IMG/VR virus record: IMGVR_UViG_3300049218_000083
Coordinates: 69,861-133,860 of that record
Strand: one strand, 5' to 3'
DNA length: 64,000 nucleotides
Origin: a virus
The translations under genes were made by a program, and so were the position numbers. This document shows positions 4,103-46,774 of the stretch, piece after piece (position 1 is the first letter of the stretch; each line of letters starts with the position of its first letter). The notes under the pieces were generated by a model. It saw only the letters and a program-made list of their open reading frames with translations. It was not told the DNA's origin and ran no database searches.

Positions 4103-4590
4103 TATTCTTTACTCTTACAATTATCGAAGTGGTATCTCTTCATCACTGGACCTTTCCCTTGTTTGTCACAGTGTGGACAGCTTACCAAAGGATGTGGATG
4201 GTAATTTCCTCTGTTGCCTACACCATACTGATTTCCTTGATGGGATCGGCTAATCTTTTCATTTGCTTCCTTGGTTCTTGTCCAAGGACCTTTCTTGTTA
4301 ACGTATGGTCGACCTTTCAATTTAGCAGACATCTTTGCTCGGTATTCAGGAGTCTTCACATATGACATATCTCGATTCTTAATTCCCTCACGCAAAGCTA
4401 TCAGTCTTCCTTCTTCACCAGTAACTCGACCAGATAACATCTCCCAAGCCAATTCATCTTGCCATCTACCATGCTGCTCGAACAGCACACGATGAGCCTC
4501 AGCGTGTTGCTCTATAGTCAATTCCACAAGGTTAGATGGATCGTCGGATCCACCAGCATGCCTTGGGTTTATGTGATGTAAATGGTTCAA
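4102..4590 (-). CDS. HNH homing endonuclease-like protein
   Basis: HHINPRHAGGSDDPSNLVELTIEQHAEAH; C-terminal CPHC..RYHFDNCK. Confidence 0.8.
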   Translation of the reverse strand: MNHLHHINPRHAGGSDDPSNLVELTIEQHAEAHRVLFEQHGRWQDELAWEMLSGRVTGEEGRLIALREGIKNRDMSYVKTPEYRAKMSAKLKGRPYVNKKGPWTRTKEANEKISRSHQGNQYGVGNRGNYHPHPLVSCPHCDKQGKGPVMKRYHFDNCKSKE

Positions 4591-7522: not shown

Positions 7523-8823
7523 TATGATTTAACCACGGATTGCAAAGATGGAGAACTGCTTGCTGGTTGGTTGAACGCAGTTGACACGCTATCAGACAAC
7601 AACTCAACGATCGTTGTACTGATGTCAAGAATGAACTTGTGATGAACGCTACTGACCAAATAGTAACCAGTTCGCACTGGGTCATTGGCTGTTGTCTTGT
7701 TCTGAATCTGCATGACTGGAACATTCAAACCGACAACCATTCCAGCCTTCAGCTGAATGTCACCCGGAATTGATCCAACAACCTTGAAGGTATTTAACTG
7801 ACCCAAACGAGAGGCAGTTTGTGGCAACCACTTCTGAACATTTGCTGGGTTGAATGTTGGATCTGAATCCGCCGACAACGTGAATTTCAACATGTTGCCT
7901 TCGGTTTGGTATACAGACTGTCCAAGCCTGTTTTGCAGTTCATTGGATGGCAGATACTGATTCAGGATAGCATTGTTGGCCAATTGCTTGACGTTGAAAT
8001 TGACGGCAGTGTATTTGCGGTTGACAATATCGAAAGTCGCAAGGGTAGATGAGAACGCACCTGACCTGATTGCCTTCAGCATGTCGAAATCCTGAGTAAT
8101 GTTCAGGACAACGAACGTGTTACTGTTCTTGACCGGATCCTGTTCCAACGTAATGTTGTAGCTGTAAACCTGATAAACAGGTTGATTCAGCAATGACTCG
8201 TAAGACACAAAATTGTATCCGTCACGGTTTTCGAAGAACAAGAACAAATTCTTGTTGACTCCGTAGCCGCGAGGTGTCAACCATGAGATAGCTTCAAACG
8301 GAGCCATACGTGGAATGATCATGTCGAAGTTGCCAGATGTCTGTTCAACCTGATGAATCTTCTGAGAAGGAACTTTGAGTTTGTTTTTAAGAAGATCAGT
8401 AATCATCTGATCGATACGCAATCCTTTGTAAGACTTGCTGACCAGGTTTTGCGCTGACACCAGCAATTCTTCAGAACAAAAGTAAAGAGTGTAATTCTGC
8501 AATCCGTTAGAGCCAAGAGAGCGATCGCTGCACTTGTAGATTCGGAATGTCTTGATGATAGGGTTGTTCAGAGATGGCTTATCGATGTTGATTTGCAGGA
8601 ATTCATTGCCGTGCAATTTCAGGTTTGAAATCAAGTCCAACGCATCACCCATAACCAAACTACCTGTCATCACTGCCGTGAAAATGTCTTCGTAGAGGTT
8701 CAATTCAACCATCAAACCTCGAATGTCTGTGACTACACCGTCGCTGGTTACAAGCTGAAGAGTGTTCAACTTGTAGTCGGACGATGCTATCAAACCAGTG
8801 GTATCAGATGCTGTATTTGCCAT
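7522..8823 (-). CDS. Baseplate hub/tail protein (gp27-like)
   Basis: LNLYEDIFTAVMTG..FLFFENRDGYNFVS..IPGD..AGMVV..GYYLVSSVHH; located between gp53 and gp5. Confidence 0.65.
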   Translation of the reverse strand: MANTASDTTGLIASSDYKLNTLQLVTSDGVVTDIRGLMVELNLYEDIFTAVMTGSLVMGDALDLISNLKLHGNEFLQINIDKPSLNNPIIKTFRIYKCSDRSLGSNGLQNYTLYFCSEELLVSAQNLVSKSYKGLRIDQMITDLLKNKLKVPSQKIHQVEQTSGNFDMIIPRMAPFEAISWLTPRGYGVNKNLFLFFENRDGYNFVSYESLLNQPVYQVYSYNITLEQDPVKNSNTFVVLNITQDFDMLKAIRSGAFSSTLATFDIVNRKYTAVNFNVKQLANNAILNQYLPSNELQNRLGQSVYQTEGNMLKFTLSADSDPTFNPANVQKWLPQTASRLGQLNTFKVVGSIPGDIQLKAGMVVGLNVPVMQIQNKTTANDPVRTGYYLVSSVHHKFILDISTTIVELLSDSVSTAFNQPASSSPSLQSVVKS

Positions 8824-16071: not shown

Positions 16072-16075
16072 ATGA

Positions 16076-16096
16076 AGACCCTCACAAGGAGGGTCT
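16076..16096. terminator. Hairpin between convergent transcription units
   Basis: AGACCCTC-acaag-GAGGGTCT perfect 8-bp stem. Confidence 0.55.
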
Positions 16097-16190
16097 CACT
16101 TGCCAGCGTTAGGTGGATTTTACTTTCCGCGCAGTTCGCAACCACCGTGTCGCATCCAATTGCAAGGCCAGCTGGCGCTCCCGGATACGA

Positions 16191-23035: not shown

Positions 23036-23320
23036 AGTGGCAGCTTATGAGGAACCCGGAAAGCTGCCGAAACCTGGTGAGAAATTACGCTGCTAGGCGG
23101 AATTCCTCAGATGCATTTTCAGTTGCATTTATACTGTTTTGCTTCATTTAGATGGTCGAACCACCAAGACGATAGCTTGTCTGTTGCCTTTACTTTTATC
23201 TCTTCCCGTCGAAAACTATTTCGCCCCCGAAGGTCGCCTAGCAGGGCGATAGTGGTGGAGGCGTCGGTTTCGCAACCGAGTCCGCAAAGCATTATAGCAA
23301 AGGAATTACAACATTCTGTT
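23036..23320 (-). ncRNA. ssrA: Circularly permuted (two-piece) tmRNA
   Basis: T-arm plus CGCCTCC-A-CCA (ends 23253), 24-nt spacer hairpin, then GGGGGCG..TTCGAC (G1=23228); G3-U70; tag ATENASEEFRLAA* at 23126-23085 after ATAAAT; P2 pairing; 3' hairpin GGCAGCTT/AAGCTGCC. Confidence 0.92.
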
Positions 23321-23908
23321 CATTTTATTTAGAGATTCATATTCGGTTCTATAGAACTCTCTTCTTTCAATTTTATTTAGCCCCTCATCAAGATTTGTCA
23401 AAAGTCCACCATGAGCAACCAACCCAAATATGTCAATTAACTTTGATTCATAGGATAATGCGTCAAGTTCGGAAATGTCAGTTATAAGTTTTACAACTTT
23501 TACTTCTTCACCAAAAGCCTCAATTTTTAATTTTATTTTTCTATGGGTCTCATTTCTATTTAATTCGTAACATCTATTACCCATACCCTTTCCAATGTAA
23601 AATGGCATATGTGTCATACCAAGAGTTGCGCCAAATGTAGTTTGCCCAGCTCTACCAATAGCAATTTTTTTAGTTGTATCTAAATGAGCATAAACATAAT
23701 ATTCTTTATTCGGATCTAATTCCAAATTCGAATACACAGATTTTATATCTGTATCATAAATTTTTCTACAATTATCAATTATTTGTCTAACCTTTTCGTT
23801 TTTTGATGGTTTATTTGATATTTGGGCAAGTCGACCCTTGACCTTACCGTAGTGTTCAAGTAACTTGACTGGGTCATCCCAGTCAAGTATAAATGTCTTT
23901 TCGTTCAT
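23306..23908 (-). CDS. GIY-YIG (LEM3-like) endonuclease, very AT-rich
   Basis: YYVYAHLD..PFYIGKGMGNR..ALSYESKLIDIFG..LTN; 3' end overlaps tmRNA 5' end. Confidence 0.78.
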   Translation of the reverse strand: MNEKTFILDWDDPVKLLEHYGKVKGRLAQISNKPSKNEKVRQIIDNCRKIYDTDIKSVYSNLELDPNKEYYVYAHLDTTKKIAIGRAGQTTFGATLGMTHMPFYIGKGMGNRCYELNRNETHRKIKLKIEAFGEEVKVVKLITDISELDALSYESKLIDIFGLVAHGGLLTNLDEGLNKIERREFYRTEYESLNKMNRML

Positions 23909-25144: not shown

Positions 25145-25221
25145 TGGCGCGCGAGGCGGGCATCGAACCCGCAACCTTCAGTTTTAGAGACTGCGCTCTA
25201 GCCAAGTTGAGCTACACGCGC
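25145..25221 (-). tRNA. Amber suppressor tRNA (anticodon CUA), Trp-like body
   Basis: Loop CTCTAAA; TTCGA T-loop; G73; encoded CCA. Confidence 0.88.
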
Positions 25222-42512: not shown

Positions 42513-43100
42513 CTAGTGCTTATTATACGCTGGATTCTTCCAGACTCGGCTGTTCTTAGGAATCGTTGCAAGCAAGTAGTCCATTTGATCAGCCAGCACT
42601 TTCCGGTTCTTCAACAGCAACTTCTCCTGAAGAGATGGTGCGTATGGAACGTAAAGAAGATGCATTCCTGCTTCCTCTGGAGTCCTGTCAGCCTTACCAT
42701 GGTTGCATGACTTACATGCAGTTACCGTGTTTGTCCAGAAGTGCCTTCCACCACGAGACTTTGGGTGCACGTGGTCGATGGTCAAGTGGTGATCCTTGAA
42801 CTGGATTCCACAGTAAGCGCAAAGATGTGCGTCACGAGCGTACAGAATGTCACGCTCTGCGTACACGGTTTCACGAGTGTAGAAATCGTTGCCGAATACA
42901 GGACCAGTAACCATGATGATGCTTGACACTGTGACGACAGAAACATCGCCGTCGCCGTTCTTTCCGCCTGTATAGGTCTTGATTGGGGAACCAAGATCAC
43001 ACACGACTTTGTCACGAGCGTAGTAGCAACATCCAGTTTCTATGTCAGTCCAGTCACGTGGGTTGCCAGATTTGTCAACAATCAATACATCGAGAGACAT
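42513..43100 (-). CDS. HNH endonuclease (McrA-like)
   Basis: RDAHLCAYCG..TIDHVHPKSRGG..WTNTVTACKSCN. Confidence 0.9.
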   Translation of the reverse strand: MSLDVLIVDKSGNPRDWTDIETGCCYYARDKVVCDLGSPIKTYTGGKNGDGDVSVVTVSSIIMVTGPVFGNDFYTRETVYAERDILYARDAHLCAYCGIQFKDHHLTIDHVHPKSRGGRHFWTNTVTACKSCNHGKADRTPEEAGMHLLYVPYAPSLQEKLLLKNRKVLADQMDYLLATIPKNSRVWKNPAYNKH

Positions 43101-43145
43101 GGTAATCTCCTCTTTATCAACAACATAATGTATTTAGCACGAAAC

Positions 43146-43220
43146 TGGAGTGGTCGACAGGATTCGAACCTGCATAGGACAGTTTTGCAGACTGCCGCGT
43201 GACCTTTCCGCCACGACCAC
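43146..43220 (-). tRNA. tRNA-Cys(GCA)
   Basis: Loop CTGCAAA; TCCA. Confidence 0.9.
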
Positions 43221-43228
43221 GTTGACTC

Positions 43229-43555
43229 TTAGCGCGCCAGGATCAGATTTTGATTTGGCACATCAATCTTGCGCTTGCCAAACATACGTTCATGGTGAAC
43301 GATAACCTGATCATCAGGCTTGGCAATGAATACGATCTTGTCCAGGAACAGAGGGACGGCACCGTCAACCAATGTTGCCCACGGAAGGAAACCTACACCG
43401 ATTTTGACTTGACCTGTCTTAGGATCCGGTTCGCCTGGCTGCGGAACAATCATCACAGCTTCGTCAACCTCGACAATAGTCTCGCTGACATTCAGGACGC
43501 GGCAAAGAAGCTCTTCGCCAGAAACCAACTTCACAATCTTTACATCGTCACTCAT
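43229..43555 (-). CDS. Conserved T4-like hypothetical protein (Sm-like)
   Basis: VKIVKLVSGEEL; FLPW. Confidence 0.65.
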   Translation of the reverse strand: MSDDVKIVKLVSGEELLCRVLNVSETIVEVDEAVMIVPQPGEPDPKTGQVKIGVGFLPWATLVDGAVPLFLDKIVFIAKPDDQVIVHHERMFGKRKIDVPNQNLILAR

Positions 43556-43564
43556 GATATCCCC

Positions 43565-43726
43565 TTAAAATTTGAACCTGACCTGTAACGGCATTCGCTT
43601 GTCACAGTGAAGATGGACATTATGCTTATCATCGACCGCGCGTTCGCACAGGACAAAAACATTTTCTCTGGTGATTGCACAACCAGAGAAAATGAGCAGT
43701 ATGACCAACAAAACTATGTTGCGCAT
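43565..43726 (-). CDS. Small putative lipoprotein
   Basis: Lipobox FSGC. Confidence 0.5.
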   Translation of the reverse strand: MRNIVLLVILLIFSGCAITRENVFVLCERAVDDKHNVHLHCDKRMPLQVRFKF

Positions 43727-43761
43727 ACAATTATGATAACCTGGAATTGACGATGGGGAAA

Positions 43762-43837
43762 TGGAGCGGATGATGGGACTCGAACCCACGACGTTTTCCT
43801 TGGCAAGGAAATGCAATTGCCGCTATGCGACATCCGC
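43762..43837 (-). tRNA. tRNA-Gly(GCC)
   Basis: Loop TTGCCAA. Confidence 0.92.
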
Positions 43838-43845
43838 GAAAGGAG

Positions 43846-43990
43846 TGCCCGAAGTGGGATTCGAACCCACAGTAAGCGTCGTGCATCACCTTTTCGGTTG
43901 CATCGACCTATACAAAGATACATTAATGCTGACTCGGACATTCGCACAATGCGAACCCATGTTGCGTTTTGCCTGTTTCGCCATTCGGGC
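43846..43990 (-). ncRNA. 145-nt tRNA-like RNA with large insertion
   Basis: Leu-like acceptor GCCCGAA/TTCGGGC, D-arm and T-arm; no standard anticodon arm; no CCA. Confidence 0.7.
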
Positions 43991-44021
43991 AGAGTGGTTG
44001 CGCGAAACATCTTTGTAAACC

Positions 44022-44096
44022 TGGTGCTCTCACTGAGAATCGAACTCAGATCCCGTCCTTACCAAAGACGTATCTTGACCATTGGACGATAAGAGC
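44022..44096 (-). tRNA. tRNA-Thr(GGT)
   Basis: Loop TTGGTAA. Confidence 0.9.
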
Positions 44097-44100
44097 GAAC

Positions 44101-44173
44101 TGGTGGTTCATGAAGGAATCGAACCTTCGTATTGCCATGTCAAAGCAACGTATTCCCGCTATACGAATGAACC
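44101..44173 (-). tRNA. tRNA-Val(GAC)
   Basis: Loop TTGACAT. Confidence 0.88.
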
Positions 44174-44180
44174 AAAATCT

Positions 44181-44363
44181 TTAGTGAATTCCTAGCGCAT
44201 GTAAATATGGCAGGAACTGTATTACCAACCAAACCACTAAAGCAGCAATGGCTACGCAGTTCAGGATATCCTTGAACGTTTGCTGGATTGGCGCTTTGTT
44301 TGCTAGATATAGCAAAATTCCAGCGAAGAAAATTACTGCAAGAATTGGTAGAATCGCGATCAT
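44181..44363 (-). CDS. Small two-TM membrane protein
   Basis: MIAILPILAVIFFAGILLYL.. Confidence 0.55.
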   Translation of the reverse strand: MIAILPILAVIFFAGILLYLANKAPIQQTFKDILNCVAIAALVVWLVIQFLPYLHALGIH

Positions 44364-44397
44364 AGTTTGTGTCTCAACATTATGTTTATCGAACAAT

Positions 44398-44474
44398 TGG
44401 TACCTCAGATGGGAGTCGAACCCACAGAAACTCATTTTTGAGACGAGTATGTTTGCCAATTACATCACTGAGGC
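44398..44474 (-). tRNA. tRNA-Leu(CAA), short variable arm
   Basis: Loop CTCAAAA. Confidence 0.87.
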
Positions 44475-44497
44475 ATAGGTCAATATGTATCCAAAGC

Positions 44498-44583
44498 TGG
44501 CGGGAAGCTGACGAATCGAACGCCAACCGTTTCCAGTCGATCTGCTTTCTAGACAGTCTTGAGCCCAGCCCAAATAACTTCCC
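44498..44583 (-). tRNA. tRNA-Ser(AGA), A34
   Basis: Loop CTAGAAA; long arm; G73. Confidence 0.85.
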
Positions 44584-44587
44584 AATA

Positions 44588-44664
44588 TGGTGCCTCGTGC
44601 GAGATTCGAACTCGCAAAATTCTGGGTTTAAGTCAGACACGTTTGCCAATTACGTCAACAAGGC
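44588..44664 (-). tRNA. tRNA-Leu(TAA), short variable arm
   Basis: Loop CTTAAAC. Confidence 0.85.
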
Positions 44665-44671
44665 GAATCGA

Positions 44672-44767
44672 TGGTACTCCATACAGGAATTGAACCTGCC
44701 CGTTGCAGCCAGTCCGGCCACTCTCGCGTGCTTATAAAACACACCCGCACGACCAGTGCTATGGAGC
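44672..44767 (-). tRNA. tRNA-Ile(TAT)-like with long variable arm
   Basis: Loop TTTATAA; 96 nt; ACCA. Confidence 0.7.
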
Positions 44768-46539: not shown

Positions 46540-46697
46540 AAAATCGCTGGTTTTGAAATTGTTCCAGCAAACAAGCATGTCAGGGTAGACTCGGACATTA
46601 ACCCTTTTTCTTACGCATCTTTCCGGATTCAAAGTCCGGCGATAACGATCAGCATTCCCGCTCTCCACGAGCAGGCGCATGAGGACATGACATAATA

Positions 46698-46774
46698 TGG
46701 TACTCGTGACAGGAGTTGAACCTGCAACATTCTGGTTCTAAGCCAGACGCGTCTGCCAATTGCGCCACACGAGC
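46698..46774 (-). tRNA. tRNA-Leu(TAG), short variable arm
   Basis: Loop CTTAGAA. Confidence 0.88.

Follow-up and report, generated by a model that had tools for sequence, protein, structure and literature searches.

What is a 145-nt RNA gene that has the acceptor, D and T arms of a tRNA and no anticodon arm, and what could it do inside the tRNA array of a phage? The element occupies positions 43846-43990, on the minus strand, of the window, by which we mean the whole 64,000-nt stretch of DNA analyzed here. The virus record from which the window comes (IMGVR_UViG_3300049218_000083) is 166.7 kb long and rated 98% complete, and the phage carries T4-type genes for a gp5-like lysozyme, gp32, RNR and NAPRTase. 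Stable tRNA-like RNAs of phage tRNA clusters go back to the species 1 and species 2 RNAs of T4, described in the 1970s, and we know of none with an assigned function. A sequence-only reading had described the element as a tRNA-shaped RNA with a structured insert, likened it to the T4 RNAs and proposed that it could be a decoy. Here we examine its frame, its insert, its relatives and the explanations that could account for them.

Genomic setting

The tRNA array comprises at least 37 tRNA genes on the minus strand, at about 43.1-49.4 kb of the window, and the element lies near its 3' end. It starts 31 nt after tRNA-Thr(GGU) (44022-44096, minus strand) and stops 8 nt before tRNA-Gly(GCC) (43762-43837, minus strand), the two genes that mark the syntenic slot. 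The leader (43991-44021) runs from the CCA of tRNA-Thr(GGU) to the element, and the trailer, CUCCUUUC, fills 43838-43845, both on the minus strand. Positions in the RNA (p) are obtained as 43991 minus the window coordinate. On the 3' side of the element and tRNA-Gly there follow a 108-aa ORF, tRNA-Cys and an HNH endonuclease gene. A promoter and terminator scan of 43100-44500 found nothing within the element, and the ORFs that overlap it are without family or coding support. In one metatranscriptome run of moss, 100%-identical contigs were present at 43971-44150, which spans the leader, and at 44134-44358 only; they cover just the first 20 nt of the element, and are unable to show its ends, its level or the absence of the remainder.

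Other RNA genes of this phage are recorded here in their own right. A permuted tmRNA is found at 23036-23357, away from the element. A tRNA that ARAGORN labels Pyl, with anticodon CUA (25145-25221, minus strand), is amber-suppressor-like and is kept in relatives (L007 4593-4664 and L018 4339-4409; L numbers denote the fetched loci). At 44672-44767 (minus strand) there is a 96-nt tRNA with anticodon UAU, a long variable arm, a 6-bp anticodon stem and an encoded CCA, which is also called in L016, L017, L030, L033, L044, L059 and L202-L205; a type II tRNA body with an Ile (AUA) anticodon is unusual. The tRNA-Leu genes at 44398-44474, 44588-44664 and 46698-46774 (minus strand) are 77 nt each and are without the long variable arm that is usual for bacterial tRNA-Leu, and a fourth, tRNA-Leu(AAG), is 84 nt long and has one.

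A tRNA-Leu frame without an anticodon arm

The frame of the element is as the sequence-only reading had it, with a perfect 7-bp acceptor stem, a Leu-type D arm and a canonical T arm, all of which we find on the minus strand of 43846-43990. In the acceptor stem GCCCGAA (p 1-7, 43984-43990) pairs with UUCGGGC (p 138-144) at 7/7 positions, and the 3' strand is followed by the discriminator A145 (43846-43853 with the strand). U8 and G9 are present. The D arm (43964-43981) has a 3-bp stem, GCG/CGC, and a 12-nt loop, AAACAGGCAAAA, that contains G18 and G19. The T arm, GUGGG-UUCGAAU-CCCAC (p 121-137, 43854-43870), is paired at 5/5 positions and its loop is of the UUCRANY form. These are the features of a tRNA, and the 3-bp D stem, the long D loop, A73 and the closeness of tRNA-Leu genes are those of the tRNA-Leu lineage, as regards the frame only.

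The decoding part of a tRNA is absent. No 7-nt loop on a 5-bp stem occurs in the 87 nt that separate the D arm from the variable-loop position, and an anticodon arm of this form, with U33, is found neither in the element nor in its two homologs, described below. The element is unable to read codons. ARAGORN in its default run does not call it, and a search of 4227 Rfam families at E up to 10 returns only a weak tRNA match (RF00005, 17.9 bits, E 0.48), which is partial (43846-43939) and below the gathering threshold of 29 bits. The reading was also correct that CCA is not encoded: the trailer CUCCUUUC stands in its place before tRNA-Gly, whereas 37/37 tRNAs that ARAGORN calls in the window encode CCA.

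Two other identities were considered and rejected. The element is not a tmRNA, since it has a D stem and no tmRNA match, and the tmRNA of the phage is elsewhere. It is also not a group I intron, for which it had already been judged too short; the insert is about 87 nt, compared with the 200 nt or so or more that a P3-P8 core needs, and there is no Rfam intron match at E up to 10.

The fold of the insert

Folded with the loop module enforced, the RNA is a five-arm cloverleaf, made of the acceptor, the D arm, a long arm (p 29-79), a second hairpin (p 84-113) and the T arm. The energy of this fold, -46.5 kcal/mol, is nearly the same as the -47.5 kcal/mol of the single-sequence minimum free energy (MFE) structure. 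The long arm (43912-43962) is irregular, stands in the anticodon-arm position and has no 7-nt anticodon loop. It carries the conserved loop GAAUGUCCGAGUCA (p 48-61, 43930-43943), in which lie the 12-mer AAUGUCCGAGUC (43931-43942) and the hexaloop GUCCGA (43934-43939), and the stem of this module is p 44-47/62-65. The second hairpin (43878-43907), in the variable-arm position, has 11 bp and a GAAAA loop.

The insert pairing proposed from the sequence was partly right. Its GUCG.UGCA-ACC-GAAAA-GGU..UGCA-CGAC hairpin is the second hairpin of our fold, and 10-11-bp hairpins occupy the equivalent place in the homologs L202 and L035. Its other two helices, an AGUCAGC/GCUUACU closing helix and a UUCGCA/UGCGAA hairpin, can be drawn in the element, and the latter is part of the MFE structure, but neither can be drawn in either homolog and both compete with the shared long arm. 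The UUCGCA/UGCGAA hairpin is excluded because the loop-module stem occupies p 44-47/62-65. With 2/3 of its helices undrawable in the homologs, the pairing as a whole is not supported; the tRNA-shaped frame around it stands.

The single-sequence fold is modest (z = -2.27; 4/200 shuffles fold equally well); it is covariation that carries weight. Conservation is poor in the inner part of the long arm, which in the window copy has a competing hairpin of equal energy. The 3' strand of the long arm contains AUUAAUG (p 64-70), which, to judge by its letters, may be left over from a UAA anticodon loop.

Homologs in the same slot and covariation of the frame

A covariance model (R2) built from the single sequence of the element and its module-enforced structure was run over all fetched loci, with L206 and L207, which have a different gene context, left out. 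It matched L202:9088-9230 (45.1 bits, E 7e-12) and L035:1755-1894 (26.1 bits). Both homologs sit between the tRNA-Thr(GGU) and tRNA-Gly(GCC) of their own phage contigs. The three framed sequences are about 58-61% identical in pairwise comparison, and the acceptor (7 pairs), D (3) and T (5) helices are nonetheless paired in 45/45 cells. Changes on both sides of a pair that keep the pairing are seen in 8/15 frame pairs, namely 5/7 in the acceptor and 3/5 in the T arm, and the D arm hardly varies in sequence. The observed values are reached in 0/500 shuffles, and pairing in slid registers is at most 51%. Covariation across homologs, one of the checks that the sequence-only reading had called for, speaks for the frame.

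The insert is shared in outline. Each of the three homologs has a 47-55-nt arm with an outer stem of 6-7 bp (the equivalents of the long arm are 32-78 in L035 and 28-82 in L202), and in each it is tipped by a GUCYGA hexaloop (GUCCGA, GUCUGA and GUCCGA), the closing pair of which changes from U-G to C-G. The second hairpin has 10-11 bp in all three framed copies, and its sequences are unrelated. The unconstrained MFE structure of L202 is the five-arm fold except for a shifted D stem, and the constrained fold of L035 is within 0.8 kcal/mol of its own MFE. The discriminator is A in 3/3 framed copies, and CCA is encoded in 1/3, that of L202. We propose a family of framed GUCYGA-loop RNAs, with a tRNA-Leu frame, an arm of about 50 nt capped by GUCYGA, a second hairpin of 10-11 bp and a place in the Thr(GGU)/Gly(GCC) slot; the window copy, L202:9088-9230 and L035:1755-1894 have all of these features.

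Many relatives do without the element. In L004/L010, L006/L031 and L028 the tRNA-Thr and tRNA-Gly genes are 6 nt apart and the slot is empty, so the element is dispensable or often lost; further relatives have different junctions at this place. R2 found no additional framed copy in the whole records behind L044, L059, L051, L006 and L053. Exact and gapped DNA patterns of the insert, the 5' half and the whole frame had 0 matches in IMG/VR, and the matches there of the 3' T-arm plus acceptor pattern were ordinary 76-nt tRNAs in unrelated contigs only. BLAST of 43700-44200 against GenBank phages gave tRNA-Gly matches only. BLAST of the element against related-phage contigs, fetched via the neighboring HNH gene, gave no full-length match, and a search for relatives through MazG found none. 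The collection scans used exact patterns or one neighboring protein, and the family counts, three framed copies and about a dozen free hairpins, are limited to these.

The conserved loop on free-standing hairpins

What the BLAST of the element against the related-phage contigs did pick up is an exact word of 12-16 nt with AAUGUCCGAGUC. In this phage clade AAUGUCCGAGUC is also found in the loop of at least 12 hairpins that stand free, have covarying stems and lie in tRNA-operon spacers and 3' of gene 32. They are on the transcribed strand in all cases, that is, the strand of the neighboring tRNA genes or of gene 32, and several come directly 3' of a tRNA end. The genome of the window has 2 copies of the word, both in the tRNA array and on the tRNA strand; the second motif hairpin, AGGGU-UAAUGUCCGAGUCU-ACCCU (46582-46605, minus strand), is in the spacer between tRNA-Leu(UAG) and tRNA-Phe. 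There are 2 copies each in L009, L030 and L059 and 1 each in L044/L051, L202 and L203, and the word is also found in L039/L068 and L045/L053, which are fragments of relatives by tblastx. The copies of L030, L044, L059, L202 and L203 are in tRNA clusters.

In the copies examined, the word is always in the loop and the sequence of the closing stem varies from copy to copy. Four hairpins with an invariant 12-mer covary at 5/5 stem pairs and are 95% paired, compared with 46% or less in slid controls. The hairpins of L039/L068 and L045/L053 have stems of 9-11 bp. Two motif hairpins are found where the gene 32 unit has its convergent end, a place at which the phage of the window has an ordinary hairpin (about 16075-16105). 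With its fixed loop on changing stems, the motif is a hairpin module of the clade at the RNA level, and the loop is constrained in sequence.

Candidates for further copies and for the meaning of the loop were screened. A 16-mer pattern had 45 matches in IMG/VR, of which only L039/L068, L045/L053, L059 and L044/L051 were accepted; most of the rest were without a closing stem or were repeated coding sequence, and they were dropped. L035:5684-5697 is not the motif, as it lies inside the RNase P-like RNA of that phage, where our copy has another sequence in the alignment. The 9-mer CGAUGCAAC, 3' of the motif in the element and in one L009 copy, is probably due to chance, with 5 occurrences in the genome and absence from the other copies examined. 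A regular-expression match to the frame at L059:8823-9005 is a false positive made of tRNA-Met, spacer and tRNA-Trp, and the motif hairpin in that spacer is real. Mimicry of a T loop by the motif (G-UCCGAGU-C) is weakened by the GUCUGA variant of L202, which has U at the equivalent of C56. The complement of the loop was not found on transcribed strands elsewhere in the genome.

Part of the motif also occurs in tRNA genes. A 10-mer of it, UGUCCGAGUC, is identical to positions 8-17, the 5' half of the D arm, of a tRNA-Ser(AGA) (L204 4962-5053, plus strand), and 3/53 tRNA-Ser genes in the fetched loci carry UGUCCGAG at positions 8-17. By this resemblance the motif loop may be descended from, or a mimic of, the D arm of a type II tRNA. 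Given the match of UGUCCGAGUC to tRNA-Ser, it could also be a recombination relic of tRNA genes.

Variants of the hairpin and odd tRNA-like sequences were seen in the same clusters. At L030 1115-1140 (plus strand) CCGAGU is tandemly duplicated in the loop of a motif hairpin (UAAUGUCCGAGUCCGAGUCU) closed by CCCC/GGGG. A conserved non-coding block of about 120 nt lies 3' of gene 32 in L039 (7650-7790, minus strand) and L045 (1978-2108, minus strand); it contains GGAUGGAGC, CCUGAUCA, UAUGAGUA, AAAGCGU and GAAGUC, its end is formed by the 9-11-bp hairpin that carries the motif loop, and Rfam has no match to it. Within the window, a second tRNA-like element at 46548-46690 (minus strand), between tRNA-Leu(UAG) and tRNA-Phe, has a 6-bp acceptor-like stem, a long first arm, a canonical anticodon arm CCGGA-CUUUGAA-UCCGG (anticodon UUG) and the AAUGUCCGAGUC hairpin in the slot of the T arm. 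The matching place in L044 holds a tRNA-like sequence that has a normal T arm and the motif hairpin after it. In L044 (about 8068-8140, minus strand), an uncalled tRNA-like sequence has the anticodon loop CUUUAAA (UUA, ochre-suppressor-like), a normal T arm and no CCA, with a motif hairpin directly after it. At L009 435-547 (plus strand) a tRNA-like sequence with anticodon AUG has a D-loop insert of about 40 nt, and is another tRNA of the clade with an inserted hairpin.

The 108-aa ORF downstream of the element (43229-43555, minus strand) matches phrog_527 (E 6e-13) and has a weak match to Pfam Sm_like (E 3e-4, below the cut-off). A word-indexed protein search with it matched nothing but itself, and L030 has a syntenic counterpart of 106 aa. 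Its product is a possible candidate for an RNA-binding protein, on a check for the ORF in some of the motif-bearing contigs.

Origin of the frame

The best non-self matches of R2 are tRNA-Leu genes, including the tRNA-Leu of T4, and it is to those of the clade and of T4 that the frame is closest. A scan of prokaryotes (one genome per species) for the first 15 nt of the element together with its 3' acceptor strand, spaced as in a normal tRNA, gave at least 120 matches. Among the matches listed, the 12 commonest sequence variants, nearly all are tRNA-Leu(UAA) genes; by record titles most matches are from Pseudomonas, with some from Nevskiales, Xanthomonadales and betaproteobacterial MAGs. The 3' acceptor strand of the element and its first 15-21 nt recur in bacterial tRNA-Leu(UAA) genes, and the best among the matches listed is identical to it at 21/21 of the first nucleotides. 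Judged by these matches, the frame is of tRNA-Leu lineage.

Discussion

The covariation argues that the element is a conserved and structured RNA and no broken tRNA, with the acceptor, the Leu-type D arm, the T arm and the discriminator A kept by selection. The comparison of homologs likewise shows that a loop motif used across the clade tips the arm that replaces the anticodon arm. We suggest, with somewhat better than even confidence, that it is a functional non-decoding RNA derived from tRNA-Leu, in which the frame is a scaffold for processing and stability and the loop binds a shared partner. From its position, the element would be co-transcribed with the tRNA operon of the phage, which is about 6 kb long. 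The frame would let RNase P form the 5' end and 3' trimming release the RNA from the operon transcript, and would give it the stability of a tRNA, as in engineered "tRNA scaffolds", which yield processed, stable chimeric RNAs in E. coli (PMC3753655, PMC3401473). The working part would be the GUCYGA loop within AAUGUCCGAGUC, a putative sequence-specific site for a shared protein or RNA partner, and the framed version would present this site on a stable, tRNA-shaped carrier. As 2/3 copies have no encoded CCA, the element probably needs no aminoacylation.

Four other explanations have to be weighed against this one. The element could be a decoy or sponge, a tRNA-Leu body without an anticodon that titrates a tRNA-targeting defense nuclease or toxin, in particular one that binds type II tRNAs. 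Phage tRNAs have been discussed as decoys or as supplements (PMC13096335; for PARIS, PMC11464382; for retrons, PMC11555353), and there are defenses with cleavage sites in the variable loop of type II tRNAs, as Septu and retron-Eco7 cut tRNA-Tyr, a type II tRNA, at this place (PMC13096335). The conserved Leu-type frame and large variable-arm hairpin would suit such a decoy. So would the 5' half of the frame, which is identical to that of bacterial tRNA-Leu(UAA) of Pseudomonas, Nevskiales and betaproteobacterial MAGs, so that mimicry of a host tRNA is possible. However, most characterized tRNA-targeting defenses cut the anticodon loop, which the element lacks; the sequence of the variable-arm hairpin is not conserved, no defense or anti-defense gene is linked to the element, and many relatives are without it. 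The conserved loop that it has in common with the free hairpins would also have no role, and we regard the decoy as unlikely. A decaying tRNA-Leu pseudogene, in which a spacer hairpin module and extra sequence recombined into the anticodon region and which has no function of its own, would be consistent with the empty slot of several relatives, the missing CCA of 2/3 copies, the possible UAA anticodon-loop relic at p 64-70 and the other odd tRNA-like remnants of these clusters, such as 46548-46690 and the L009 sequence (435-547) with its D-loop insert. Against this, three lineages about 40% diverged keep every acceptor, D and T pair, with 8 double changes, and keep the two extra arms and the hexaloop as well. 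Decay would hardly have left 8 compensated pairs and three extra features in place at such divergence, and we consider it distinctly unlikely.

The element could also be an RNA that accepts leucine without decoding, charged by LeuRS after CCA addition, for a non-ribosomal use or as a sink for LeuRS or EF-Tu. The LeuRS of E. coli does not read the anticodon, and tRNA-Leu identity lies in A73 and tertiary elements of the D arm; the discriminator A and the almost invariant Leu-type D arm of 3/3 copies, and the CCA encoded by the L202 copy, are in line with charging. Two copies are without CCA, however, in a window where 37/37 tRNAs encode it, and no enzyme that would use such a substrate was seen nearby; the idea is entirely inferential and we hold it to be quite improbable. 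Finally, the element could be an intron-containing tRNA that is cut and re-ligated into a normal one, for example by the Pnk/Rnl-type enzymes of the clade. Genes for an RNA ligase and a kinase are indeed near the cluster in relatives, and ARAGORN, when introns are allowed, calls a tRNA-Gly(UCC) with a 52-nt intron. This model is forced, as its anticodon stem is mismatched and its anticodon is that of a tRNA-Gly, on the frame of a tRNA-Leu. By our reading of the sequence there is no single segment whose removal would leave a 7-nt loop on a 5-bp stem, and an anticodon arm of this kind is not shared by the homologs. A group I intron would have to be far longer than the insert, to which Rfam has no match. 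No credible spliced tRNA was found, and splicing is extremely improbable.

Among known RNAs, T4 rnaC (species 1 RNA), the role of which is unknown (PMC3014915, PMC9697503), is by its plan the closest in kind, and the element falls outside the rnaC family. Both are encoded on the tRNA strand in the tRNA cluster of a T4-type phage and are of similar size (139 nt for rnaC and 145 nt for the element), and both have paired ends, a canonical T arm (GGGUUCGAAUCCC in rnaC) and two long hairpins in place of the anticodon arm. The likeness that had been noted to the stable RNAs of the T4 cluster holds for the plan, not for homology. There is no detectable homology, as R2 run over the T4 region (L008) misses rnaC and matches only the tRNA-Leu at 4374-4457, and no motif in common with rnaC was seen. 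By our reading of its sequence and fold, rnaC also has no regular D arm, a 3' end that pairs best internally and no GUCYGA loop. It is absent from Rfam.

The acceptor, D arm, T arm and discriminator A of the element are homologous to those of tRNA-Leu, both of T4-type phages and of the bacterial type II (UAA) kind. Unlike these, it has no anticodon stem-loop and is 145 nt long instead of 77-87 nt, its window copy has no CCA, and its variable-arm hairpin is two to three times the normal tRNA-Leu length. Engineered tRNA scaffolds, following the approach of Ponchon and Dardel, also have a structured RNA in place of the anticodon arm; there the insert is a foreign RNA, and the frame gives correct processing in vivo and stability (PMC3753655, PMC3401473). 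They are artificial, whereas the element would be a natural and conserved case, in which processing is only inferred. The bacterial Y RNA-like YrlA, some copies of which are phage-encoded, is likewise a non-coding RNA with a tRNA-like domain and a separate helix, which in YrlA binds protein (PMC4201824). YrlA differs in that the two ends of the RNA are within the Ro-binding stem and a loop closes the acceptor-like helix. The element has no Rfam match to it, and no Ro-type gene is among the ORFs examined.

The element is unusually readable for an RNA of this kind, with a plain tRNA-Leu frame, an invariant loop that is reused elsewhere and covariation from three diverged copies. An unexplained RNA can thus be turned into a testable proposal, in which the loop is the binder and the tRNA frame the carrier. 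If so, it would be a natural counterpart of the engineered tRNA scaffold, of interest to RNA engineers. If instead it were a decoy for tRNA-directed immunity, it would represent a new class of phage counter-defense. A more speculative extension, to which we give a small probability, is that the element is a natural tRNA-scaffold adaptor. Its tRNA-Leu body would engage the tRNA machinery or a defense that targets type II tRNAs, with RNase P, the CCA enzyme, LeuRS, EF-Tu or a Septu- or retron-type nuclease as candidates, and its loop would recruit a phage partner. By coupling or blocking both, it would act as a tRNA-mimic regulator or an anti-defense RNA, and with the free loop hairpins the phage would label its own transcripts for this partner.
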